Shown: positions 1 through 62,987 of the stretch, piece after piece | Position numbering within the stretch: position 1 is the first letter of the stretch | Layout of the letters: the number at the start of each line of letters is the position of its first letter | Assembly (NCBI GenBank): GCA_965207225.1 | Contig: CBDBLV010000004.1 | Location: forward strand, 32,001 to 96,000 | Source: Dehalococcoidia bacterium | GTDB lineage: Bacteria > Chloroflexota > Dehalococcoidia > Plut-88900 | Reading direction: 5' to 3' | DNA length: 64,000 nt | The notes under the pieces: model-generated | The model's database searches: none | Told to the model about the DNA's origin: nothing | The model's input: the letters and a program-made list of their open reading frames with translations, nothing else | Made by a program: the position numbers and the translations under genes

Positions 1-1595
1 AGCTGCTGGAAGGCATCTTCAGGCGCTTCAAGCTGAATGCCATCTTTGCCTATGCGATAGCCGGGCTTGTCCTCGGGCCAGTCGGCGGGTTGGTTGAAGA
101 CAGTTCGGAGTTGGACCTAATCCTGGGCCTGGGAATCTTCATCTTTTTCTTCCTTATCGGGCTGGAGGAGTTGGACATCAGAGGCTTCGTGGCGGCCATC
201 CGGGGACGCTTGTTCCTGGCTTCAGTTTTATCGGTGGCCATATCGCTTCTAATTTCCCTGGCGGTAACGACAGACTTCCTGTTTGACCTGCACTTAGACC
301 TGGATTTCACGCAGGCCCTGGGCCTTGCCGGTGTATTGTCGTTGTCAAGCCTGGGACTCGTGGCAAAGGTGCTGATTGACGAAGGGAGGCTGAAGGAGCG
401 CGTGGGCGTGCAGATCTTCACAGCAGTAATCATCGCCGAGCTGATCGCGCTATTTGTCGTGGGTTTCACTATCAGCGAACACTTCGGATCTGAAGAAAAC
501 GGCCGGGGCCTAAGCTGGGTCAGTGTATCGGTCCTTGTAGGGCAGATTCTCGGGTTTGCCATTGTCACATGGCTAGTTTCGACACTGATGTTGCCAAGAG
601 TGATAGTGCTGCTACACCGGTTCCTAAGGGTGCCTCAGCTTTCATTTGGGCTTCTGCTCGGCGGACTTTTCCTGGTTGTGGTTGCTGCCGAGGCGGCCGG
701 GCTCCACGGGTCTATCGGGGCTTTACTGTTTGGAGCGGCGCTGTCGACGCTGCCCTACCAGGTGAGGCGCGACATCATGCCCGGGATGCGGGGCACGGCC
801 GAGGGGTTGTTCGTTCCGCTGTTTTTCGCCTCTGCAGGTCTACATCTGAATCTCGAGTTCCTCGATCTTCCCTGGGAGACCGTGCTCGCTTTGGCTCTCG
901 TGCCTCTTGGAGGCAAATTCGTAGCGGCGTTTGTCAGCGCGTACATCACCCGCCTGAATGCACCCTTTGCCACCGCGATGGGGCTGATGGCCAAGGGCGT
1001 GGCAGAGATTGCCCTTCTGTTAGTGTTGCTGAAGTCGGGAGCTATAGGCGATGGTGTCTTCTCCCTGCTAGTGCTGGTGATGTTTGGATATATCCTTCTA
1101 ACTCCGATGGGGATCAGCTTTTCCCTTCGGAGAACCCGACTCTCTGAGGAAATAGTGCCATCAGGGCAAACGCCTCCATCGTTGGACCGGTTTGCCCTGG
1201 AGGGCATCAGAGTAAAGGATATCCTGGACCGGTCTCGCAGATACCCTGAACCCACACTTACTGTCAAAGCGTTTATCGAGAGCTGGATGCTGCCGCAGCA
1301 GCATGACTACGTAGTTGCGGACAAGGAAAGGTGCGCGGGCATAGTCTCATTAAGTATGCTGCGCTATCTCCCACGGGGAGAGTGGGACCGGACTGAGCTT
1401 AGTCAAGTGTTGCGCCGCAACACTCCGACCGCAAATCCGGATGAATTTCTGGAAGACGCACTACAGCGTATGACTGAGAATTCGCTGACCGTGCTCCCTG
1501 TGATCGAGACGAAGACGGGTAACTTCATGGGTACGATTTCAAGCCACGAAGTGTTGGAATTGGTGGTGCTCACGGCCACGGGCCACGAAAATTGA
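1..1595 (+). CDS. Cation:proton antiporter (CPA2/Kef-like) with C-terminal CBS pair; 5' end truncated by window
   Basis: Frame is open from position 3 (LLEGIFRRFKLNAIFAYAIAGLVLGP) into ORF 90..1595. About 12 TM segments with GLE, LSSLGLVAKVL, GALLFG, FVPLFF and KGVAE motifs, then a CBS-like tail (DALQRMTENSLTVLPVI..GNFMGTIS). Confidence 0.88.
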   Translation, partial: LLEGIFRRFKLNAIFAYAIAGLVLGPVGGLVEDSSELDLILGLGIFIFFFLIGLEELDIRGFVAAIRGRLFLASVLSVAISLLISLAVTTDFLFDLHLDLDFTQALGLAGVLSLSSLGLVAKVLIDEGRLKERVGVQIFTAVIIAELIALFVVGFTISEHFGSEENGRGLSWVSVSVLVGQILGFAIVTWLVSTLMLPRVIVLLHRFLRVPQLSFGLLLGGLFLVVVAAEAAGLHGSIGALLFGAALSTLPYQVRRDIMPGMRGTAEGLFVPLFFASAGLHLNLEFLDLPWETVLALALVPLGGKFVAAFVSAYITRLNAPFATAMGLMAKGVAEIALLLVLLKSGAIGDGVFSLLVLVMFGYILLTPMGISFSLRRTRLSEEIVPSGQTPPSLDRFALEGIRVKDILDRSRRYPEPTLTVKAFIESWMLPQQHDYVVADKERCAGIVSLSMLRYLPRGEWDRTELSQVLRRNTPTANPDEFLEDALQRMTENSLTVLPVIETKTGNFMGTISSHEVLELVVLTATGHEN

Positions 1596-2031: not shown

Positions 2032-3687
2032 TTGCTGAATAGCATATCGCCACGTGTTTCGGAATACGGTATAAGTGGCGTACGCGGCGATGTTCTTGGC
2101 GGCGTCACTGCGGCAATAGTAAGTCTGCCGGTAGCATTAGCCTTCGGACTGGCGGCGGGGCTTGGCCCCGCCGCCGGCATTTATGGCGCGATTTCGGTGG
2201 GATTCTTTGCCGCCGTGTTTGGGGGCACCAAATCTCTAATTTCAGGCCCGACGGGTTCGATGACGGTGGCAATGGCTGTCATTGTCGAGACGAGTGCGGA
2301 CAATATCGCAGAGGCCTTCACCATTGTCGTCATGGCGGGGATGTTCCAGATCCTGTTCGGGCTGCTCAGGATCGGCCGGTTCGTCACGTACACGCCCTAT
2401 TCCGTGATTTCGGGATTCATGACGGGTGTCGGGGTGATCATCATCCTGGTGCAAACGTTGCCATTCATGGGGGCAGAGGTAGCAACGGGCGGCCCGATAG
2501 GCACTCTGCGGAATATCACTTCGATATTTGACGAATTCGAGAGCAATGCACTCGGGATAGCTGCAATTACCCTGGTCGTGGCCATACTGTGGCCAAACAA
2601 GTTCGACAAATATCTTCCCTCTACGCTTGTCGCCCTGGGAGTCGGGACGTTGGTTAGCGTGGTATGGCTCACCCAGGCCCCCACGATCGGGACCATCCCA
2701 ACGGACCTGCCGTCCTTCGCAATGCCGGACTTTGCACCCGACACCCTGGTACGCTCCATAGAGCCGGCGATAGTCATTGCGCTGGTTGGATCGGCGGACA
2801 CGCTGCTTACGGCGCTGGTTGCGGACTCGATGACCCGTTCCCGGCACGATCCCAGCAGAGAGTTGCTGTCCCAGGGTATTGGCAACGTATTCACCGCCTT
2901 CATACGTGGGCTACCCGGGTCGGGGGCCACGCCGAGCACGGTAGCAAACGTCCGGGCAGGGGGCCGAACCTTTGTATCTGGAGTGGTGTCGGTGGGGATC
3001 CTGGTGGTGCTGGTCCTGATGCTGGGAGAGTACGTGGCGTCGATTCCTAACGCAGTGCTGGCGGGGATCCTCGTGAAGGTGGCGCTTGACACCATAGACT
3101 GGCGGTTCGTGACCCGCATACACCGGGTCCAAAAGGAACACATGGTAGTCATGCTCCTCACCCTTGGACTTACGGTCTTCCTAGACCTGGTTGCGGCGGT
3201 TGCGGTGGGTATGATTGCGGCTGCGGTGACCAGCGCAAGGCAGTTCGAGAGACTGGAAATGGACAGCGTAGTGTCCGTGCCGATTCTCGACCAGGTGTTT
3301 TTCGGGACTCTGGATGAAGAGGACGACTTAGACGAATACACTGCGAGGGTTGGGCTGGTTGCGCTTAGGGGCACATTTACTGTGGCATCCTCCAGCAAGC
3401 TCATCGATACGATAGGCGAAGACATCAGGGAGCACGAAGTGGTCATCTTAGACTTCACCGACACCGTCTATATCGACGACAGTGCGGCCCTGGTGGTTGA
3501 ACAGCTGATTGAGACGTCCTTTAACTACGACACGCAGTGCATCATCATGGGGCTCCAGGGGACACCAGCACAGAACTTGCAGGGCCTGAACGTCTTGAAG
3601 CAGGTACCGCCAGACCAAATAGTGGAAGATAGGGACCAGGCGAGAGCGGTTGCTGCGAGGCTGCTGGCACAGAAGGCTACTACCTAA
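2032..3687 (+). CDS. SulP family inorganic anion transporter with STAS domain (BicA-like)
   Basis: GDVLGGVTAAIVSLPVALAFG, ISGPTG, PYSVISGFMTG and ELLSQGIGN motifs; C-terminal STAS (VILDFTDTVYIDDSA). Confidence 0.93.
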   Translation: MLNSISPRVSEYGISGVRGDVLGGVTAAIVSLPVALAFGLAAGLGPAAGIYGAISVGFFAAVFGGTKSLISGPTGSMTVAMAVIVETSADNIAEAFTIVVMAGMFQILFGLLRIGRFVTYTPYSVISGFMTGVGVIIILVQTLPFMGAEVATGGPIGTLRNITSIFDEFESNALGIAAITLVVAILWPNKFDKYLPSTLVALGVGTLVSVVWLTQAPTIGTIPTDLPSFAMPDFAPDTLVRSIEPAIVIALVGSADTLLTALVADSMTRSRHDPSRELLSQGIGNVFTAFIRGLPGSGATPSTVANVRAGGRTFVSGVVSVGILVVLVLMLGEYVASIPNAVLAGILVKVALDTIDWRFVTRIHRVQKEHMVVMLLTLGLTVFLDLVAAVAVGMIAAAVTSARQFERLEMDSVVSVPILDQVFFGTLDEEDDLDEYTARVGLVALRGTFTVASSSKLIDTIGEDIREHEVVILDFTDTVYIDDSAALVVEQLIETSFNYDTQCIIMGLQGTPAQNLQGLNVLKQVPPDQIVEDRDQARAVAARLLAQKATT

Positions 3688-3744: not shown

Positions 3745-4278
3745 CTAGCCCTTGATCCTGAGGGGCAGGCCCGCCGTCATGAAGTAGACAACGTCGGCTT
3801 CCGCGGCGATGAGGCGGTTGACACGACCCAGTTCATCGGTAAAGACCCTGCCTAGTTCCGTAGTCGCAACGAGACCCAACCCCACCTCATTGGAGACGAC
3901 TATCCAGGAAGCATGTCCTCTCCCGTAAGCCTCCAGTAAATCTTCCACATCAGATGGAATGTCGCGACGGTTGGATCGGATGTCGGGCGTACTGTGGAGG
4001 AGGTTGCTGACCCAGAGGGTGAGGCAGTCCAGGACCACCGTATCGTACTCTCCCAGGGCGGGGGCAAGGGCTGCAGTGAGTTCCAGGGGCTCTTCCAGGG
4101 TGTCCCAATGGTCGGGGCGGCTTTCTCGGTGAGCCTGGATGCGGGCTTCCATCTCCGGGTCAAGGGGTTCTGCGGTGGCCAGGAAAAGGACGCGATCGGC
4201 AGGTGCTGCGAGTTCCTGGGCGAATGAACTCTTGCCAGAGCGAATACCACCAAGGATGAGGGTCAACTGCTTGGTCAT
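3745..4278 (-). CDS. cobU: Bifunctional adenosylcobinamide kinase / adenosylcobinamide-phosphate guanylyltransferase
   Basis: GGIRSGKS P-loop, EMEARIQAHRESRP, LDCLTLWVSN, VSNEVGLG; lies in a corrinoid operon. Confidence 0.95.
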   Translation of the reverse strand: MTKQLTLILGGIRSGKSSFAQELAAPADRVLFLATAEPLDPEMEARIQAHRESRPDHWDTLEEPLELTAALAPALGEYDTVVLDCLTLWVSNLLHSTPDIRSNRRDIPSDVEDLLEAYGRGHASWIVVSNEVGLGLVATTELGRVFTDELGRVNRLIAAEADVVYFMTAGLPLRIKG

Positions 4279-4323
4279 ATAAAGCTCCTCATTTGCTCCC
4301 TGTCTGGATCCGTAAACTCTGAT

Positions 4324-5085
4324 TCACCAAAGATGTGGTTGGAACAGCCAAGAAAACTGTTCATAGAGGACCAGGCCAGTCAATAGAACCGAGACCTCAG
4401 TCAATTCGTTAACTGCGCCGTAGGTGTCCCCAGTCATTCCGCCCAGGAGTCGGGAAGTGAAGCGTCCTATTGCGAGGGCCACGACCAGGGCCACAGCGGC
4501 CAGAACAAGGCCTCCGAGCCCGAGAATCAGCACTCCGACAGCCGCTGCGATACCCAGCCCTAGCGCGTCCATCCACCATCTTGTCTGCACCTTAAATGAA
4601 GTACCGAGTCCCTGGTCTCGGGCATATTTGAAAACGATTATGGTGAGAAGCATTCCGGCACGAGAGAGAGCTGGAAACAAGACAAAGAGTTCGGTTCGCA
4701 TTTCGGTGTCGACGGATGCGAGGAGGGCCCATTTGAAGATAAGAAGCGTAGCACCGCCGATAACCGCAAAGGCGCCAACGTGGGGGTCGCGGAGTATTTC
4801 CAAGCGCCTTTCGCGGGAGTAGGCGCCGAAAAGGGCATCGCAGGAATCCAGGAAACCCTCGGTGTGAAGGGCTCGGGTGAGTACGAGCAGAGCGATGACG
4901 AGAAGGGCCCCGACCACGAATGGCGGCAGGACCATGCTTACGGCTAAGTCCAGACCTGCGAGTATTCCTCCCAGCCCAAGCCCTACCAAGGGGAAATATG
5001 CTCTTGTGCGACCCATGGGCCGGAGGTCACGGAAGCCTACGGGGAAGATGGTCAGGAAGGAGACTGCCAGTCGGAGGCTTGTCAC
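4324..5085 (-). CDS. cobS: Adenosylcobinamide-GDP ribazoletransferase (cobalamin synthase)
   Basis: FLTIFP, ALHTEGFLDSCDAL, RLEILRDPHVGAFA and GGMTGDTYGAVNELTE motifs; membrane protein. Confidence 0.95.
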   Translation of the reverse strand: MTSLRLAVSFLTIFPVGFRDLRPMGRTRAYFPLVGLGLGGILAGLDLAVSMVLPPFVVGALLVIALLVLTRALHTEGFLDSCDALFGAYSRERRLEILRDPHVGAFAVIGGATLLIFKWALLASVDTEMRTELFVLFPALSRAGMLLTIIVFKYARDQGLGTSFKVQTRWWMDALGLGIAAAVGVLILGLGGLVLAAVALVVALAIGRFTSRLLGGMTGDTYGAVNELTEVSVLLTGLVLYEQFSWLFQPHLW

Positions 5086-10005: not shown

Positions 10006-10074
10006 CGATGTGCGCTGGTCGGGATTGTTCCCTGGACTCGAGGGACCCTCTCTGAGGCGGAGAGTGGTCACCTT

Positions 10075-10236
10075 CCGTTCAGGCAGGTCTCCTGACTTGC
10101 GGGTTGGGTCTGTGCCCCGATCCCTTCCCACCGGCGTACCGGCAGTGGTCTCGGGCCAAGTTCCCCGCTTACAGTGGCGCTACCGTGGCGGTCTTTCACC
10201 GCCTTCCCTATTCTCCCTGGGCGGGCACCTGAACGG
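10075..10236 (-). ncRNA. Cobalamin (AdoCbl) riboswitch
   Basis: Minus strand reads AGGTG..AATAGGGAAGGCGGTGAAAGACCGCC..GCCACTGTAA..CCACTG..GGGAAGG..AAGTCAGGAGACCTGCC (B12 box). Closed by CCGTTCAGG/CCTGAACGG; upstream of the btu/cob operon. Confidence 0.96.
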
Positions 10237-10265
10237 GCAGTGTATATGTTTTTGAGTTGCGGGGT

Positions 10266-25055: not shown

Positions 25056-25934
25056 CTATTCGTATTCACCTCCCCTTTCGTAGAAACGCTCGGAAGAGAT
25101 CGAGATGTCCCCAAGAGCCTCGTCAATTCCCACCTCGAGTATCGACCTACTGTATGAGTGCCTGCCCTCTGTGTTGTCGAAGAACTGACCAAGAGGAGAA
25201 ATCATCAAGTAGCTGCCAGTCATGAGTTCATTGTTTTCTGGCACCACTCTGACGCCTCGCCACTCGACGGTACGGTTGCGCTCTACGTATTGATTGAATT
25301 CATCCTCCGTGATTGAAAATTCATCGATGCGCTCGTCATTCTGCCGTTCTACCCGCAGCACCTGGAAAATCTTCCATCGCTCAGGATGGACGACACTGAT
25401 GAATTTCCGAAAATCTTCATGGCAATTGTAGCGGTTCACCACCGTGTTGATTTTTAGGCGAATACCTTGATCTTTGACCTGCTCACATACGCGCATGTAT
25501 GCGTCGGCGTCCATTGACTGGCCTCGCAAAGTGCGACCGATTTTTTTCTGCGTGTCGCAGTCTATGCTGTCTATGCTGAGGGCGAGGATATTAAGACATC
25601 CCGCCACTTCGTCCAGCCAATCATCCGTGATTTTCGATCCGTTGGTTACTATGGATGTCTGCAACCCGTTCTCACTAGCACGGCGGATTAGGGAAGGGAG
25701 CCAGCGACACAGTGTTGGCTCACCGCCAGCGAAGTTTATCTTTTTGATTTTGGTTTCTGCTATCAAGTCGATAAGTCTAAGCGCATCCGGTTCCTTCAGA
25801 TATTTCACATTCTGCATGTTCGGAAGATCGGGGAACGTTGCAAAACAAAAGCCGCACTTCATATTGCACGGCTTCCAAAGGTGGTAGTTGACTGTTGGAA
25901 CTAAAAAGACCTTGGGGCCGTTATGCACCTTCAT
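25056..25934 (-). CDS. Prokaryotic viperin (antiviral radical SAM ddhNTP synthase)
   Basis: VNYHLWKPCNMKCGFCF (CxxxCxxC in the viperin context), KINFAGGEP, SIDS, LKINTVV, PERWKIFQVL, QND, ENNELMTGSY, GQFFDN, SILEVG. GGAGG SD before ATG at 25934. Confidence 0.92.
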   Translation of the reverse strand: MKVHNGPKVFLVPTVNYHLWKPCNMKCGFCFATFPDLPNMQNVKYLKEPDALRLIDLIAETKIKKINFAGGEPTLCRWLPSLIRRASENGLQTSIVTNGSKITDDWLDEVAGCLNILALSIDSIDCDTQKKIGRTLRGQSMDADAYMRVCEQVKDQGIRLKINTVVNRYNCHEDFRKFISVVHPERWKIFQVLRVERQNDERIDEFSITEDEFNQYVERNRTVEWRGVRVVPENNELMTGSYLMISPLGQFFDNTEGRHSYSRSILEVGIDEALGDISISSERFYERGGEYE

Positions 25935-31855: not shown

Positions 31856-33094
31856 ATGAAGCAGAGCCGTACTGCCTGGTTGACCCGCTCCCGTGCGCTG
31901 AGCTCGCTGGAGCATCGGGGGTGGAGGAGGCTGTGGTTCGTCAGCCAGCTTTGGCACCTGCCCTTCTGGATGGACTACATCATCCTGGGATGGGTGATCC
32001 TGGAGCGGACGGACTCGCCGTTCCTGGTGGCGCTGGTCGGGGCGGCGCGGCTTCTGCCGATGGGGACGCTGGGGTTCGTGGCGGGGACGCAGGCCGACAG
32101 GTGGCCTCGAAAGAGCATGTTGGTCGGGGCACAGGGTTTGAACTTCGTGCTGTCGGCGGGAATGGGAGTGGCCCTGCTGCTCGACCTGCTGGAGCTGTGG
32201 CAGATGTACCTAGGGGCATTTCTCATCGGGATTGCCTGGGCAATCGACTACCCGGTGAGGCATTCGATAATCCGAGACGTGGTGCCGGAGGACGTGGTGG
32301 TGAACGCGATGGCGATAAACGTGGCGTCGTGGATGGGGTCGGCGATGGTGGGGAGGTGGGTGGCGGGATGGATGCTGGACGTGGCGGGGCCGGGGGAGGC
32401 GTACATATTCATCGCGGTGTCGGTGCTGCTGGGTCTGCTTTTCGTGCTTCGGGTACCGGTGCCGAGGGCAGTCAAAGTGGCCGCGGTGCCTGAGTCGATG
32501 ATCAAGAGCGTGACGTCGGGGCTGAGGTACGTGTGGGGGAACGGACCAATTAGAGGCGTGCTGCTAATCACTCTCGGGGCGAACATACTACTGTTTCCAC
32601 ACATACAGCTGCACGCGGTGTTTGCGAGGGACGTGTATAACGTGGGGGCCACGGGGCTGGGGTTCCTGAGCGGGATGGACGGACTGGGATCGATGATTGG
32701 GTCGATCACGATAGCGGCACTGGGGACGCTGAGATACAGGGGCCGGATATTCGTCGTGGGGTCAACGGTGCTGGGGATAGGGGTGCTGCTGTTCAGCCTG
32801 ACCCCGACGTTTGGGCTGGCGTTGCTGGCGCTGCTGTTTGCAGGATTCGGGCAGGGAGGCTTCACGACGATGCAGACGACGATAGCGACGACGGCGTCGA
32901 CGCCGGAGATGAGGGGTCGGGCGATGGGTGCGGTGGCAATGGCGATCGGGTCTCTGCCGCTGGGGATGGTATACATCGGGGCGCTGGCGGAGTGGATCGG
33001 GGTGCAGAGGGCGGTAACGTACAGCAGCGTGGCCTTCTTGGTAGTGGTGCTGCTGACGGCGGTGACGCAGCCGGGGATCCGTCGGGTGGGGTGA
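31856..33094 (+). CDS. MFS transporter (MFS_3/EntS-like)
   Basis: WVILERTDSP, GTQADRWPRK, EMRGRAMG; likely start MKQSR at 31856. Confidence 0.88.
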   Translation: MKQSRTAWLTRSRALSSLEHRGWRRLWFVSQLWHLPFWMDYIILGWVILERTDSPFLVALVGAARLLPMGTLGFVAGTQADRWPRKSMLVGAQGLNFVLSAGMGVALLLDLLELWQMYLGAFLIGIAWAIDYPVRHSIIRDVVPEDVVVNAMAINVASWMGSAMVGRWVAGWMLDVAGPGEAYIFIAVSVLLGLLFVLRVPVPRAVKVAAVPESMIKSVTSGLRYVWGNGPIRGVLLITLGANILLFPHIQLHAVFARDVYNVGATGLGFLSGMDGLGSMIGSITIAALGTLRYRGRIFVVGSTVLGIGVLLFSLTPTFGLALLALLFAGFGQGGFTTMQTTIATTASTPEMRGRAMGAVAMAIGSLPLGMVYIGALAEWIGVQRAVTYSSVAFLVVVLLTAVTQPGIRRVG

Positions 33095-56354: not shown

Positions 56355-57116
56355 ATGACAACCGAAAACATTCAACGCATCTATCTGGACGGCCGGCACT
56401 ACGATCTGGCCTACAGGAACTTCACGGAAGATGTCGATTTCTGGATCGGGGAGGCGAAGCGTCACGGGGGGCCGATACTGGAACTGGCGTGCGGGACTGG
56501 ACGGATAGCTATTCCGCTGGCGAGGGAAGGGCTTGAGGTGACGGGGCTGGACCTGGTGGGGTCGATGCTGGAGCAGGCGCGGGTGAATTCGGAGGCGGAG
56601 GGGCTGGAAATCGAGTGGGTAGAGGCAGACATGCGATATTTCTCCCTGGGAAAGACGTTCCCGCTTATCATCTGCCCCTCACAGAGCATGTCGCGGATAT
56701 TGAAGGTCGAGGACTTCGAGAATTGTCTGTCTCGGGTCAAGGAGCATCTGACGCCGGCCGGGGTGTTCATAATGGAGCTGTACAACCCGTCGATGGAGAT
56801 CCTCGGTCAGGGGGAGGACAGGGCACCGTTCCTAGAGTACGAACATCCGGACGGCGATGGGACGGTGCGGGTAAATGTCAGCAGCACTTACGACACTGCG
56901 ACTCAGATCCAGCACCTGATACTGCACTATTCACTGCCGGAGGTGAAAGAGCAGCCGACGGAGCATATCAACATCCGGATGTATTTTCCTCAGGAACTGG
57001 AGGCCCTACTCAGATACAATGGGTTCGAGGTGGTGGAGAAGTATGGGAACTTCGAGGGTAAGGGATTTGAGTCGGGGGACGAGTACCAGGTGGTGGTGTG
57101 CGGGGTGAGTCCCTAA
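56355..57116 (+). CDS. Class I SAM-dependent methyltransferase
   Basis: ILELACGTGRIAIPLA, GLDL, ADMR, HLTPAG, ELEALL. Confidence 0.9.
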   Translation: MTTENIQRIYLDGRHYDLAYRNFTEDVDFWIGEAKRHGGPILELACGTGRIAIPLAREGLEVTGLDLVGSMLEQARVNSEAEGLEIEWVEADMRYFSLGKTFPLIICPSQSMSRILKVEDFENCLSRVKEHLTPAGVFIMELYNPSMEILGQGEDRAPFLEYEHPDGDGTVRVNVSSTYDTATQIQHLILHYSLPEVKEQPTEHINIRMYFPQELEALLRYNGFEVVEKYGNFEGKGFESGDEYQVVVCGVSP

Positions 57117-57148
57117 GACGCTCCCCGCCCATGCCGCCCATTAGACCT

Positions 57149-57196
57149 CCTTCGAGAGCCTTAGGACGGGCTTCGATTCCGCCCAGGGTGAGCGGA
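57149..57196 (+). repeat. REP-like family C, tandem units
   Basis: CCTTCGAGAGCCTTAGGACGGG followed by CTTCGATTCCGCCCAGGGTGAGCGG. Confidence 0.55.
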
Positions 57197-57294
57197 ATGA
57201 TGCCCGGCACCCGTAGGACATAGCCTAAATCTTCATTTACAATCCTCTGCGCCCCCGTGCGATTTCTGAATTCTGAAGTGGGGCGAGACGCTAG

Positions 57295-58539: not shown

Positions 58540-59672
58540 AGACCGTAGATCCCCCGGGCATTGAGGCCCATAACCTTGTCCCGGTCGTCGGGGGGGAGGG
58601 TTTCGAGGCTCTCCTTCAGGCGGGTGACGGGGGCTTCGCAGGAATCACTGTGGGGGTAGTCGAAGGCCCAGACGAGGCGGTCGGCGCCGATGAGGTTGGC
58701 GGTCGGGGCGCCGAGCTCGTCGTCGGGTTCCATGGAGATCCATCCCCGTTCGCTGAAGTATTCGCTGGGCTTCATCTTAAGGGATGTAGTGAAACCTATA
58801 AGCTCGAAGACCTCGTCCATCCTTTCGAGGAAATAGGCCATCCACAAGCAGCCGGATTCGAGGAGGATGATCTTCAGTTCGGGGAACCGGTCGAAGACCG
58901 TGCCCTGGAAGAAGCTGCAGAAGCTGTGCATGAGCTCGGTGGACTCCACGGTGAAGGTCCACCAGGACGGGTGCTTGACCTCGGGGTGGAGGATGGAGGA
59001 TGCCGAAGTGCCGGCGGAGCCGACGTGGAGGGTCACGGGGACGTCCTGGTCCTGGTGCTCGGCCCAGAGAGGATCCCAGTGGGAGGAGCCCCAGGAGATG
59101 TCTCTGGGCGGCCCGGAGGGGCCCTGGATGGCCTTCTTTTCCAGGCCCGAGAAACGCTTCATCTCGGAGACGCTTAGCTCAACATCGTGCCAGGGGAGGG
59201 TAAGGGCGGGGACGAGGCGGTCGGGGTGGGCGGAGCAGAAGTCGACGATCCAGTCGTTGTAGACGGTGCAGTAGGCGTTGGAGAGGGCGGGGTCCTGGAG
59301 GCGGGCGAAGGCGAGGCCGACGGTGGGGTAGAGGATGCTGATGTCGATGCCCTCGGCGGTCATCATCTTGACGCGCTCGTCGGGGTCCCAGGCACCCGGG
59401 ACACGGGCGAGGGACTGTTCCCAGGTGAAGTCGCGCTTTTCGAAGACGTGCTCCTTGCGCCAGGCCTGGGTCGTTCCGATGGCGGCGACGTTGGCGCTGC
59501 GGCCCTTGGAGTAGGTGCTGGTCATCACACCGTCGAAGCTCCAGTACTCGAGGCCCTCGTCGTCGATATCGATGCGGAGGGCGCGGGAGCGGTAGTCGGG
59601 GGCGATGTTTTCGGTCCAGAGGTGTGCAGGTTCGAGGACGTGGCCGTCTACGTCGATGAGTGGGGTTGACAT
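58536..59672 (-). CDS. Amidohydrolase family 2 protein
   Basis: DVDGHVLEP, YNDWI, FDRFPEL, ESGCLW, AFDYPHSD; close paralogue of 38382..39521. Confidence 0.92.
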   Translation of the reverse strand: MSTPLIDVDGHVLEPAHLWTENIAPDYRSRALRIDIDDEGLEYWSFDGVMTSTYSKGRSANVAAIGTTQAWRKEHVFEKRDFTWEQSLARVPGAWDPDERVKMMTAEGIDISILYPTVGLAFARLQDPALSNAYCTVYNDWIVDFCSAHPDRLVPALTLPWHDVELSVSEMKRFSGLEKKAIQGPSGPPRDISWGSSHWDPLWAEHQDQDVPVTLHVGSAGTSASSILHPEVKHPSWWTFTVESTELMHSFCSFFQGTVFDRFPELKIILLESGCLWMAYFLERMDEVFELIGFTTSLKMKPSEYFSERGWISMEPDDELGAPTANLIGADRLVWAFDYPHSDSCEAPVTRLKESLETLPPDDRDKVMGLNARGIYGL

Positions 59673-59733
59673 TGGGTTACCGCCTTTCGGAGAGTGGTCT
59701 CAATTCTACGCCAATAGACATAATGATGGCTGG

Positions 59734-60216
59734 CTACTGTTCGAGGTTGGGGGTGGGTTGGGGACGGGTACGGATGCCCGGGATGAAGCGGAGGGCGAGA
59801 ATGAATAGGATGCCGGTTATGGCGCCGACGGCGGCGAATATGCCAGCGCCTTCGAAGCCACCGAGGAAGGCTCCGACGACTGCTCCGGTGAGCGTGGCTG
59901 TGCCAGCGACCAGGAATCGGAGTTCGATTTCAAGGAGACGCAGGGGGACGATGAGAATTCCCGTAAGGGCGCCGGTGACCAGGCCGATGGCGCCAACGGC
60001 GGCGGCCGAGCGGGGCACCTCCACGGAGCCGCCGATGATGAGGCCGAGGAAGGCTCCCAGAGCGGCCCCGGCAATTGCGCCGCCCAAAGCCCCGAGAAAG
60101 AAGCCGCTCACGAGCCAGACCAGACACTTGCCGGACACGACGCCCATGAGGCGAAGGCGTCGGGGGAAGGCGGATGGGGATTCGGGGTGAGTGTCCAAGT
60201 TGGATTCAGGGGACAT
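59734..60216 (-). CDS. Hypothetical glycine-zipper membrane protein
   Basis: Repeated GxxxGxxxG hydrophobic helices; likely start MSPESNL at 60216. Confidence 0.6.
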   Translation of the reverse strand: MSPESNLDTHPESPSAFPRRLRLMGVVSGKCLVWLVSGFFLGALGGAIAGAALGAFLGLIIGGSVEVPRSAAAVGAIGLVTGALTGILIVPLRLLEIELRFLVAGTATLTGAVVGAFLGGFEGAGIFAAVGAITGILFILALRFIPGIRTRPQPTPNLEQ

Positions 60217-60313
60217 GATGCAAGGTTCCGATGGGGATATGTTAAAGCACGGGGGACGGGTGCGCCAATGAGCGGGAGGGCATGGGGCAACATCCGATTT
60301 GACATATAGTTGC

Positions 60314-60430
60314 TTGATTGAAGGGAGATTGAACTTGATTGAACCCTGATTGAACTTGATTGAAGGCTGATTGTTCTTGATTGAACGTTGATTGAACATT
60401 GATTGAACTCGTAGCTGTTTTGATTGAACG
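60314..60430. repeat. Helically phased tandem array of (T)TGATTGAAC-like units
   Basis: GATTG starts at 60316, 60327, 60337, 60348, 60358, 60369, 60379, 60390, 60401 and 60422. Confidence 0.9.
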
Positions 60431-60510
60431 ACGCCTGAAGGGGGAAAAAATTCATAGGGGCGATTTTTTGGTTGAGTGTGACTGAGGTTAAGATTGACAT
60501 AATGATGGGA

Positions 60511-60810
60511 TTAAAGGCTGAGGTTGCGCTCTAACTTTTCGTTGAGATCGTAGAGGGCGGAGCGCCGGCGGGGGTGGTCAGCGGGGAGTTCGGAGATGAA
60601 GATGAGGGTATCGATGATGTAGCCGGGCTGGGCTTTTTTGCTGCGGCGGGTCTTGCGCTGGACGTTGAGGAACCATCGGTGGAGGAAGGGATAGGGGGCG
60701 AGGGATGGAAGGAGGGATTCCTGTACGCGCTTGGATGCAAGGCCGTGTCTCAGGCGGTTTCGGTTTCCTTTGGGTGCGCCGGCACCGGGGCGCTTTCCTC
60801 CTGAGGGCAT
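60511..60810 (-). CDS. Small basic protein with GGKRPGAGAPKGNRNRLRHG motif (terminase-small-subunit-like motif)
   Basis: AAGGAAG SD, upstream TTGACC-N17-CATACT promoter, characteristic Gly/Lys/Arg N-terminal motif. Confidence 0.7.
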   Translation of the reverse strand: MPSGGKRPGAGAPKGNRNRLRHGLASKRVQESLLPSLAPYPFLHRWFLNVQRKTRRSKKAQPGYIIDTLIFISELPADHPRRRSALYDLNEKLERNLSL

Positions 60811-60916
60811 GGGGTTGTCACTTCCTTTGGAATAAATGTTTAGTAAGTATGTACAATTAGGGAGTTCGGGTCAAGGGGGATTGGCGCGGTTTGGGGAGAT
60901 ACCCCCTACCCTACAG

Positions 60917-61061
60917 AGGAACCCTCACCCCCTTGGTCCCCCTCTCCCCCTCGAGGGACTCGGGGCAGGCTCTTAGGGCCTTTAAGGGAGAGGGAGAGAA
61001 AAGAACAGAGGCAGAGGTTGGCGCTTCAGCGCCAACCTCTGCCTCTAGTTCAATACTGGGG
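60917..61061 (+). repeat. Composite palindromic element, second copy of 34338-34460
   Basis: Same frame, with a different 19-bp palindrome and a nested 24-nt insert. Confidence 0.75.
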
Positions 61062-61112
61062 AAGAGGGTGAGAGGTGTTAGACTAGATGTAAGACTAATC
61101 TTCGATTTGGCG

Positions 61113-62756
61113 GTGACCGATTTGACTTTCAGCCCGCTTCGACGCTTCCAAAAAACGACAAAGTTCCTGGTGGTTTCGGCGATTTCCTTAATCTGCCTGG
61201 CTGTATTGCTGGTTGGGTGCGGGGGAGGGGACGAAGCGGAACCGACCGCGGTGGAGGAGCTTACACCGGTGTCGGTATCCAGCCCTGAATCGACCGAGCC
61301 GACAGCAACATCGGCAATTTCGACGCCAGCACCCTCGGTGGATGAACCCGAACCGGCAGCAGAAACTGAGGGTGAAGGGGACAGCAAGGTCGAGCTGCTG
61401 TACAGGATTACCAGGAACAGGGTTGGAGAGCCGGGCAACGCGGAGGCAGTAGCGGCCATCCGGGAGATTGGGGACTCGGGGGACCCAGCTTTTGTGGTCG
61501 GGTTGAGCGACATTATCCAAGTGCCTTTGACGAGGGATGAGCTGCTATTCAATGCCGAGCAGGTGATCCCGACCATGCAGATGCTATCGGGACAGGAGAT
61601 TGCGTACGATGGAAAGTCCTGGGTCGAGTGGGTGGCGCAGCAGCCCGATTTGAGGCTGCCGGAGGGCTATTTCGGGTGGAAGGTTGACCTGCTGAGCCAA
61701 ATCGACTCCAGATTCAGGAACTACTTCACCATCGACGGAAGCGAAGGGCTGATGGACCCGGCAGACATAGACCTGGACCTGAGATTCATGGTGTGGGGCG
61801 GGGTGTTCCAGGATGACGGATCGGCGAGGTCGATACCATCACTGGTCAATCCGGCTATGGTGTCGGCGGAGGAGGCGGTGTACCTGAGGGACGACGACAG
61901 GGTGTTCGGAGTGTCGATAAACGGAGACTCGCGGGCGTATCCGTTGAGGATCATGAACTGGCACGAGATGGCAAACGACGTGGTCGGGGGTGTGCCGGTG
62001 GCGCTGGCGTACTGCACGCTTTGCGGGTCGGGGATCCTGTACGAGACGCAGGTGGAAGACGAGACGTACGTGTTTCGGAGCTCGGGGCTGCTGTATTTCA
62101 GCAACAAGCTGATGTACGACCTGACGACCGGCGGACTCTGGAACCAGTTCACGGGGATTCCCGTGACGGGATCGCTTGCGGGGTCGGGGGTGGAGTTGAA
62201 CGTGCGACCCGTGACCCTTACGACGTGGGGAGACTGGCTGGCATCGCACCCCGACACGCTGGCCATGGACGTAGACACGGGATTTCCTCGCAACTATTCA
62301 TCTGAAGGGGTGCCGGGTGCGGCGTACGTGGACTATTTCAGCAGCCCTGATCTCTGGTTCCCGGTGAACGTGTACGACGAGCGGCTGCAGGTGAAGGACG
62401 TGGTGTACGGGGTTGAGATCGGAGGGGAGGCAAAGGCGTATCCAGTGGACGTTGTCGGGGAAGAGGTCCTGGTCAACGATGAGGTCGGGGGGACGAACAT
62501 CGTTCTGCTGGGCAATCCAGGAACCAAGGCGGTGGAGGTGTTCGAGCGTGGAGATGTGGAGTTCGTGGGGCTCGTGACGGAGAACGGTATGACAACTCTT
62601 ACCGACGCGGATGGGATTGAGTGGCGGGTTACGGATTCACAGCTGGAGTCGGGGGACGGGAACATGACGCTGGCGAGGGTAGGGGGAAGGACGAGCTTCT
62701 GGTTCGGGTGGCGGGCGTTCTTCCCTGAGACGGAGTTGTACGGGGGTGGGGGGTAG
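61113..62756 (+). CDS. DUF3179 domain lipoprotein
   Basis: Lipobox LLVGC, acidic linker, IPSLVNP, RAYPLRIMNWHEMAND, YCTLCGSG, SGLLYFSNKLMYD, FWFGWRAFFP. Start uncertain (GTG 61113 or TTG 61122). Confidence 0.85.
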   Translation: MTDLTFSPLRRFQKTTKFLVVSAISLICLAVLLVGCGGGDEAEPTAVEELTPVSVSSPESTEPTATSAISTPAPSVDEPEPAAETEGEGDSKVELLYRITRNRVGEPGNAEAVAAIREIGDSGDPAFVVGLSDIIQVPLTRDELLFNAEQVIPTMQMLSGQEIAYDGKSWVEWVAQQPDLRLPEGYFGWKVDLLSQIDSRFRNYFTIDGSEGLMDPADIDLDLRFMVWGGVFQDDGSARSIPSLVNPAMVSAEEAVYLRDDDRVFGVSINGDSRAYPLRIMNWHEMANDVVGGVPVALAYCTLCGSGILYETQVEDETYVFRSSGLLYFSNKLMYDLTTGGLWNQFTGIPVTGSLAGSGVELNVRPVTLTTWGDWLASHPDTLAMDVDTGFPRNYSSEGVPGAAYVDYFSSPDLWFPVNVYDERLQVKDVVYGVEIGGEAKAYPVDVVGEEVLVNDEVGGTNIVLLGNPGTKAVEVFERGDVEFVGLVTENGMTTLTDADGIEWRVTDSQLESGDGNMTLARVGGRTSFWFGWRAFFPETELYGGGG

Positions 62757-62771
62757 GCGCCACGCCCGGGG

Positions 62772-62987
62772 ATCACCCTCACCCCAGCCCTCTCCCGTCG
62801 AGAGGGCTTTGCGTAACTTGCTGTTGGGGGAATCCCCCCCAGAATCCGCTCGACCCTTCGAGTGGCCTCAGGATGAGCGGATTCTGCCCCGCCCGTGGAG
62901 CTCGGGCATGCAACTGACTTGTGTTGCTGTCAGTATCTTGTAGGACCGACCAGCGCTTGAGATTCCTCGCGGGGCCTCGGAATGACA
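62772..62987 (+). repeat. Cluster of REP-like families A, C and B between convergent genes
   Basis: A at 62772-62806, C at 62840-62886, B at 62960-62987. Confidence 0.75.

Follow-up and report, generated by a model that had tools for sequence, protein, structure and literature searches.

A gene for a small basic protein paired with a helically phased repeat array in Dehalococcoidia chromosomes

The minus strand of contig CBDBLV010000004.1, from an uncultured marine-type Dehalococcoidia, carries a unit of ~0.6 kb in which a promoter is followed by the gene of a small basic protein and then by a phased array of short direct repeats. The unit lies in a stretch of 64,000 nucleotides (contig positions 32,001 to 96,000; hereafter the window, whose numbering is used below). 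The pairing of protein and array is genuine and conserved, and it is inherited as a block within ordinary chromosomal DNA of SAR202-like Dehalococcoidia. The module belongs with devices in which a small protein is paired with a helically phased repeat array, and its protein comes from an uncharacterised family that has a segment in common with phage small terminases. The reading we favour, to which sequence and analogy lead us to give a probability of roughly 0.4, is that the protein forms oligomers along one face of the array beside its gene, as in ParR-parC or StbA-stbS. A first-pass annotation of this DNA had already described the promoter, the Shine-Dalgarno sequence, an open reading frame (ORF) for a basic protein of 99 aa and the array downstream as one compact unit, and all of these are present. 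The module measures ~590 bp, from about 60276/60306 to 60896, and its parts are, in the order in which they would be transcribed:

60846-60874, minus strand: promoter, with the -35 hexamer TTGACC at 60874-60869, a 17-nt spacer and the -10 hexamer CATACT at 60851-60846
60830-60841, minus strand: conserved box AAAC-N4-ATTC in the 5' untranslated region (UTR), a candidate operator and the second of two strings earlier proposed as LexA boxes
60821-60827, minus strand: Shine-Dalgarno sequence AAGGAAG, 10 nt ahead of the ATG, kept as AAAGGAR across the aligned loci
60511-60810, minus strand: basic protein of 99 aa, with a predicted disordered N-terminal arm containing GAGAPKGNRNRLRHG and then four predicted helices
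60491-60499, minus strand: isolated repeat-like word TGTCAATCT, 14 nt past the stop codon
60445-60469, minus strand: A6 tract, 13-nt C-rich spacer and T6 tract
60411-60439, minus strand: lead-in TTCAGGCGTCG, first array unit and its invariant extension
60316-60428, minus strand: array of 10 direct units with the consensus GTTCAATCAAN, starting 83 nt past the stop codon

The strongest evidence for the unity of this block comes from its inheritance. A genome scan matched 146 stretches, among which 22 loci were confirmed; five of them (L001-L005) are full-length relatives and lie on 3.0-3.4-Mb chromosomes of Dehalococcoidia metagenome-assembled genomes. In the window and these five, the promoter-like region, the ORF, the word ATGTCAAT, the A-run/T-run pair, the heptamer TTCAGGC and the array follow each other in the same order and orientation, so that ORF and array co-occur in 6/6 close loci. 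L001, L003, L004 and L005 are syntenic with the window over kilobases, and synteny across five genomes indicates that the locus is stably chromosomal. The first-pass annotation had asked whether the unit is multicopy and whether its homologues lie in ordinary prophages: OY764147.1 bears two copies (L002 and L003), and none of the six loci lies in a prophage. L002 resembles the other loci only over ~3918-4503 (locus coordinates), that is, from ~80 nt 5' of the ATG up to where the array ends, and it shares with them only promoter, ORF and array; a promoter-ORF-array block of ~585 bp is thus what was copied. Its flanks are unrelated, with membrane protein, RNase D-like, MTHFR and sarcosine-oxidase/GcvT genes. 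The ORF of L002 is closer to that of the window (85.5% nucleotide identity) than is the ORF of L003, the syntenic copy (80.5%), and the array of L002 is of the long type found in the window (9-10 units against 5). Together these sequence features suggest transfer or conversion rather than an old duplication in place.

The array itself combines rapid turnover with a constant geometry. Its G+C content is 37%, that of the window 60.5%. The word TTCAATC occurs 16 times in the window, compared with 6.07 expected (standard deviation 2.35; 0/100 shuffles reach 16), and nine of the 16 are on the minus strand within 60316-60428; the tenth unit is a variant, CAATCA. Tandem Repeats Finder (TRF) scores the array 127 at a period of 21 and 87 at a period of 11. 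Successive units in the window are spaced by 21, 11, 11, 10, 11, 10, 11, 10 and 11 bp, and the average over all six arrays is 10.57 bp per turn, with individual loci ranging from 10.43 to 10.8. Unit number differs between loci, with 10 units in the window, 10 in L001, 9 in L002, 5 in L003, 14 in L004 and 5 in L005. The window and L001 have 10 units each in a different order while their ORFs are 98.7% identical, which indicates that the array turns over fast and keeps its geometry. In L004 the units have diverged (TT has become CC, and the 3' flanks vary), but a CAAYC core at 10/11 bp persists over all 14 of them. The reading frame left open through the array is not the same in the window, in L002 and in L004, which marks the array as non-coding.

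The DNA that leads into the array is even more constant. The first unit and its 3' extension form 18 nt that are identical in 6/6 loci, and TTCAGGC is likewise invariant; no other part of the module is as well conserved, the nucleotide identity of the ORF between non-sister loci being 76-86%. The word ATGTCAAT is also found in 6/6 loci, at 68-70 bp from the first array unit in four and at 57-58 bp in two, a difference of about one helical turn. A small ORF beginning at this word was considered and rejected, as its frame varies between loci. The A-run/T-run pair is kept in 6/6 loci despite a differing spacer; it may be a bend, a weak hairpin or an unwinding element. Searches of the window by tblastn, nhmmer and word counts found neither a second copy of the module nor further arrays. 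Two more TTCAATC words stand 19 nt apart at 25292-25317 (minus strand), within a radical-SAM gene; they form no array and are probably due to chance.

The small ORF is a real gene, as judged from a ratio of nonsynonymous to synonymous substitution rates (dN/dS) of 0.18-0.36 in 15/15 pairs, a sign of purifying selection on the protein, and from the fact that the only length difference among homologues is an in-frame indel of three codons. The protein begins with MPSGGKRPGAGAPKGNRNRLRHG and contains 20 Lys and Arg residues versus 7 Asp and Glu, for a net charge of about +13. A word-indexed protein search gave eight close relatives among 10 candidates. A profile of close relatives recovered 349 representatives among 1.84 billion proteins (E <= 0.001), and a broader profile recovered 1020 clusters at 90% identity (E <= 1e-5) among 7779 candidates. 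Among the 120 matches listed, all source names are "hypothetical protein", with one exception that is probably a mis-annotation, and the organisms, where named, belong to the Chloroflexi or Dehalococcoidia. The ESM Atlas likewise returned hypothetical clusters only, mostly from Chloroflexota. By its sequence, then, the protein is a member of a large, unnamed and mostly Chloroflexota family. The 99-aa protein matched no family of Pfam, PHROGs, NCBIfam or PADLOC at threshold, and none of 51 family members scanned reached a Pfam cutoff. A search for longer fused forms gave only two, which are probable read-throughs. Searches of the literature found no published description of the promoter-ORF-array module and no papers for its motif strings.

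Within the family, conservation is concentrated in the N-terminal arm, MPxGGxRxGAGAPxGNxN..HG..S, which is nearly invariant across 132 members. AlphaFold2 models built from 9 and 132 sequences are of moderate confidence (pLDDT, the predicted local distance difference test score, 70.1 and 71.5, respectively). Both predict an arm of low confidence without secondary structure (residues 1-22 disordered), followed by helices at approximately 27-37, 41-56, 63-74 and 80-97, and no strand. The C-terminal tails of 215 family proteins are enriched in the dipeptide Asn-Gln (192 observed versus 51.5 expected; the reversed Gln-Asn control gives 51). These tails may reflect AAYCAR-rich DNA at the 3' ends of the genes, or a motif of the protein.

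The favoured reading joins these observations as follows. A constitutive-looking promoter would drive the synthesis of a very basic protein of 99 aa, made of a flexible arm (GGKRPGAGAPKGNRNRLRHG) and a four-helix body. Its presumed cognate site would be the DNA directly downstream, where a nucleation-like first unit precedes 5-14 direct units with a CAATC core. As their spacing is one turn of B-DNA, all units would lie on one side of the helix. Nucleation may take place at the first unit with its 21-bp gap, and several copies of the protein would bind side by side to give a filament or a wrapped complex, in the manner of ParR on parC, StbA on stbS, TubR on tubC, RemA on its upstream regions or small terminase on pac. 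Lying between the transcription unit of the module and the promoter of the next gene, such a complex could block or tune transcription into the downstream gene. That the protein recognises the DNA of the array and assembles along one face of it is suggested by five features taken together: co-inheritance, copying as a block, the invariant first unit, the helical spacing of the cores, and a basic protein with a conserved flexible arm. We further infer a local transcriptional role (roadblock, insulator or tuner) in preference to segregation or packaging, because the module has no nucleoside triphosphatase (NTPase), terminase or replicon and because the array, in either genomic context, separates a transcription unit from the promoter that comes next.

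The two contexts differ in the gene that follows the array. In the window the module is preceded by a divergent gene for a DUF3179 lipoprotein-like product and followed by a gene for a glycine-zipper membrane protein and then by an amidohydrolase gene. The glycine-zipper gene is downstream of the array in the five syntenic loci, and an RNase D-like gene takes its place at L002. The candidate promoter of the next gene is kept in the window, L001, L003, L004 and L005 and is missing from L002. The features just outside the module, and a word that touches both its ends, are:

60276-60287, minus strand: exact recurrence, ~30 nt past the array, of a 12-nt word that spans the start codon of the ORF (first copy at 60814-60803)
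60239-60268, minus strand: candidate promoter of the next gene, TTGGCG-N18-TAACAT
59734-60216, minus strand: glycine-zipper membrane protein of 160 aa (Pfam Gly-zipper_YMGG, E 1.9e-5, under the curated cutoff)

A 14-nt version of the start-codon word, with one mismatch, occupies both equivalent places in L002, and the homology between the window and L002 stops just past the second copy. The repeat could be a scar of the duplication or a chance occurrence in C-rich DNA. As for terminal direct repeats of the kind left by insertion, short CAAACCG-like words and this 12-14-nt repeat are present, again in C-rich DNA. On a larger scale the window is ordinary chromosome: the Pfam matches of its ORFs include cobalamin salvage, luciferase-like monooxygenases, amidohydrolases, CoA-transferases, RecQ and transporters. 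Among the window ORFs scanned against Pfam there are no phage, integrase, terminase, partition or response-regulator genes, which bears out the earlier remark that no phage gene is nearby; ParA, ParM and TubZ are equally absent from these ORFs, and the window contains no tRNA.

The closest known systems include pairs of a small protein and a row of repeats on plasmids. The fold of ParR is a ribbon-helix-helix (RHH). The parC site of the type II partition system of plasmid R1, in the published account, contains 10 direct iterons of 11 bp, each bound by one ParR dimer on one face of curved DNA (PMC2241845). The module resembles this system in pairing a small protein with direct repeats that are spaced by about one helical turn. 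However, parC flanks and autoregulates the par promoter and the gene of the actin-like ParM follows, whereas the module has a protein modelled as all-helical, an array 3' of the gene, no NTPase and a chromosomal location. The stbS site of plasmid R388 consists of ten 9-bp repeats with 2-bp spacers, an 11-bp cycle that its authors read as one-sided binding (bioRxiv 10.1101/2022.04.29.490116). StbA, like the protein described here, is a lone small protein without an NTPase of its own, but it has a PadR-like helix-turn-helix (HTH), and its repeats stand within the promoter of its own gene, on a conjugative plasmid; the module has neither an HTH nor a plasmid match. Compared with centromere-type systems in general (ParR-parC, StbA-stbS, TubR-tubC), the module possesses the repeats at helical-turn spacing. 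It differs from them in the fold, which is neither RHH nor HTH in models of moderate confidence, in the lack of a partner NTPase or of a plasmid or phage replicon, and in the lack of promoter-overlapping repeats, its 5'UTR containing only a single loosely similar word.

A further parallel is RemA, the biofilm activator of Bacillus. This protein is small, lacks a classical DNA-binding motif and assembles into rings, around which repetitive DNA at a long distance upstream of promoters is proposed to wrap (PMC8481266). RemA differs in its LytTR-related fold and in its poorly conserved sites, which lie away from its own gene, and searches with Pfam and Foldseek found no relation of sequence or fold between it and the 99-aa protein. 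If the protein binds the array, a function would be available for an unnamed family of more than 1000 clusters (90% identity) that occurs mainly in Chloroflexota, where few regulators have been characterised. A chromosomal example without NTPase or HTH would then join the short list of devices made of one protein and one phased array, and the link to the small-terminase segment would suggest that a packaging-recognition part has been domesticated.

Several observations weigh against assembly of the protein on its own array. Autoregulation through the array is not evident, as the array lies 3' of the gene and not over the promoter. The array strand is richer in C than in G and unstructured, which fits a role at the RNA level equally well. 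In L004 (OZ244800.1), whose array is the longest (14 units) and most diverged among the loci, the orthologue has ATA at 4001-4003 in place of ATG and no other in-frame start after the preceding stop; the remainder of the ORF is intact. Flanking DNA was compared for two distant family members, L006 and L007; in L006 the likeness to the array comes down to two CAATCA words at a distance of 9 bp, and L007 has none of the CAATC-type array. Six alphaproteobacterial ORFs that share the N-terminal motif have no downstream array either. The alternation of 10 and 11 bp could be a by-product of the duplication of 21- or 42-bp blocks and not of selection on phase. The protein, too, gives little to compare. 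Foldseek searches of both models against PDB and BFVD returned nothing at E <= 0.001, neither an HTH nor an RHH was recognised by Pfam or fold search, and a sequence-profile search of PDB found designed helical repeats only.

Repeats of other kinds accompany the two distant members. In L006 a 9-bp repeat of 2.9 copies (3234-3259) lies just downstream of the gene and is the only TRF match in the 6.9-kb locus. L007 has an 8-bp repeat of 3.8 copies, ACTGAACA (3960-3989), just before the start codon, which resembles the 5'UTR word of the close loci, and a 33-bp repeat of 3.9 copies downstream (4610-4738). These anecdotal cases give hints of lineage-specific repeats. The alphaproteobacterial loci (L009, L011, L012, L013, L015 and L016) hold small ORFs (PNSGNRKGAGAPKGNRNA...) that have the motif alone in common with the family, and several of these ORFs are, by eye, just 5' of apparent luciferase-like monooxygenase genes.

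Action of the array as RNA is the best of the other explanations, although we think it unlikely. The array, in the 3' UTR, would function in single-stranded form. It would serve Rho as an exceptionally regular entry (rut) site, so that transcription stops short of the next gene, or, in a possible variant, would be bound by an RNA-binding protein, perhaps by the basic protein of the module. Composition and structure agree with this. The search for an intrinsic terminator from the small gene's stop codon to the next gene was negative; the 294-nt spacer is 32% C and 12.6% G, and the array 25.6% C and 11.6% G. The RNA of the array is no more structured than shuffled sequences (z = +0.72), RNAalifold found no consensus structure in the lead-in (-1.4 kcal/mol), and Rfam gave nothing for the array at gathering score or at E <= 1. 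The fixed orientation of the array relative to the ORF in 6/6 loci also counts in its favour. In the predictor outlined in PMC6144790, rut sites are unstructured RNA with more C than G and with YC dimers separated by linkers of about 9-13 nt; by this measure the spacer contains a chain of 12 YC dimers, compared with a mean of 6.6 in 300 random segments of the window. However, YC chains in random segments of this C-rich genome can be as long as 16. For Rho, spaced YC dimers in C-rich RNA would be enough, which leaves the CAAYC core, the invariant 18-nt first unit and the helical mean period unexplained. Rut sites also differ from the module in that they are not tandem arrays with a conserved core of 5-7 nt and an invariant first unit; to our knowledge, no natural rut site is a tandem array.

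Alternatively, the array may be the operator of another host regulator, for instance of the OmpR/PhoB type, that controls the downstream promoter, the small ORF being a linked bystander. Response regulators of this type bind direct repeats at 10-11-bp spacing, and direct repeats on one face are typical of activator sites. The position of the array is also suitable, since it ends 58-77 bp 5' of the conserved -10 of the next gene in the five syntenic loci and, in L002, 59 bp 5' of a -10-like TAGAAT, and the -35 hexamers of the downstream promoters are weak or absent. However, the array stays with the ORF even when the downstream gene changes, as in L002, where another gene comes after the same ORF and array. 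Furthermore, the window ORFs scanned include no response-regulator gene, and the phase between the array and the -10 varies by 0.24-0.62 turn, which is not significant for five values. We regard such an operator as quite improbable.

The first-pass annotation had itself proposed a LexA-controlled, damage-inducible protein derived from a terminase that marks its own array as a packaging start, possibly one like those of gene transfer agents (GTAs), or else a minimal selfish or anti-phage element. In the promoter region, TTGACC-N17-CATACT is the sole sigma-70-like site in 59600-61300, where 0.8 would be expected by chance, and TTGACC-N17-CATAMT is retained in 5/6 loci, L004 having TGTGAC and a 16-nt insertion. 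The two strings taken for LexA boxes exist, GTACATACTTAC at 60854-60843 and AAACATTTATTC at 60841-60830, but they agree at only 5/8 and 6/8 positions, respectively, with the Gram-positive core GAAC-N4-GTTC, and the first of them is simply the -10 region. The core is reportedly the LexA box of Dehalococcoides as well. The 5'UTR box reads GAAC-N4-ATTC in L002, L003 and L005, where 7/8 core positions agree, one mismatch away; it may be an operator for something. An exact GAAC-N4-GTTC occurs nowhere in the window. With weak boxes, poor matches to any LexA consensus, with no exact core and with no SOS gene (lexA, recA or uvr) for comparison in the DNA covered, induction by damage appears unsupported rather than refuted.

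The likeness to terminases on which the proposal draws concerns one segment. L019, from Faecalibacterium, encodes a protein with HTH_23 and Terminase_5 domains and two copies of the motif, next to an apparent large-terminase gene, and hhalign aligned the family profile with it at 96.5% probability over 58 columns, which comprise the motif and the following helix. At E <= 0.01, 23/36 family members match NF040601 (best 2.2e-6), and 5/36 match phrog_1889. The motif noticed at first is thus real, and GAGAPKGNxNAxKHG with the next stretch is what the family has in common with small terminases of the SPP1/SF6 type (NF040601, phrog_1889). The likeness is limited to this N-terminal motif and the stretch after it. 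The window protein scores 13.1 bits against NF040601 (TerS_not_xtmA; E 0.055), over residues 4-31 only and with a cutoff of 120 bits, and its PHROG matches have E values of 0.26 and 0.45. It opens directly with the motif, without the N-terminal HTH domain that L019 has as HTH_23, and has neither a full-length match nor a fold match to viral proteins in BFVD. The low score, the missing HTH, the missing terminase partner and the absence of phage or plasmid matches together lead us to regard the protein as having a segment in common with one terminase family, without being a terminase.

For packaging there is in addition a numerical parallel. PMC4737164 describes terminase rings whose DNA-binding units follow each other at intervals of one helical turn and around which ~100 bp of pac DNA are thought to wrap; the ten units of the window resemble the number of ring subunits. 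The module has also been moved or copied at least once. However, no large terminase or phage morphogenesis gene was found among the window ORFs scanned or the seven ORFs around L002, nor was a capsid, portal or integrase gene. PADLOC gave no match, and searches of 50,697 phage and 72,556 plasmid records by tblastn and blastn found none to the module, which is, moreover, syntenic at one chromosomal place in five genomes. Roles in packaging, in GTAs or in defence against phages are consequently not supported, and we hold the combined proposal to be highly unlikely.

The N-terminal motif is also present in proteins of a different kind. In Fluviicoccus, L014 (4001-4591) and L020 (4001-4606) contain ORFs that start with MPSGGKRPGAGRP and continue, by eye, as apparent S24 (LexA/UmuD-type) peptidases; in L020 the following gene resembles, again by eye, one for a Y-family polymerase. 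The N-terminal arm that these proteins have in common with the family may serve in contact with DNA generally.

That the array is a functionless minisatellite, born by slippage beside a small gene and merely carried along, is just as doubtful as the packaging proposal: unit numbers vary (5, 5, 9, 10, 10, 14) and the reordering of units between the window and L001 is typical of tandem-repeat turnover, but the array persists in 6/6 loci over about 20% nucleotide divergence, its core and spacing are retained in L004 where the flanks diverged, its first unit is invariant, and it was copied along with the gene. Least probable of all is a terminase-derived hitch-hiker that kept the oligomerising segment and the arm and whose private, pac-like array brings the packaging or transfer machinery of a resident phage or GTA to the flanking chromosome, or works as a decoy against it; with no integrase, replicase or capsid gene of its own, it would be the smallest satellite-like element known.

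Other features of the window are unconnected with the module. A cobalamin riboswitch (103.4 bits) at 10065-10247 (minus strand) precedes genes for an ABC/FecCD/periplasmic-binding transporter and cobU, cobS, cobT and cobO. Between 19839 and 50259 there are eight luciferase-like monooxygenase paralogues, and the 64 kb also hold four Amidohydro_2 paralogues and several CoA-transferases; we take such expansions to be typical of SAR202-type Dehalococcoidia. Upstream of the module, the divergent intergenic region, where no gene ends, contains a perfect 19-bp hairpin (60994-61058; stem 61006-61047) with a T-rich run after it. In L001 the stem is wholly different between identical flanks, which indicates that the structure is kept while the sequence is replaced. 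Micro-RNA-like Rfam matches at 60868-61058 were dismissed, as they correspond to this hairpin and arise by chance. Finally, G-rich/C-rich intergenic elements with GGGGTGAGGGT-type words occur at 60900-60990, about 57100-57220 and 62750-62940. They are also found 5' of the module in L001 and L005 and look like a genome-wide family resembling repetitive extragenic palindromic (REP) elements.

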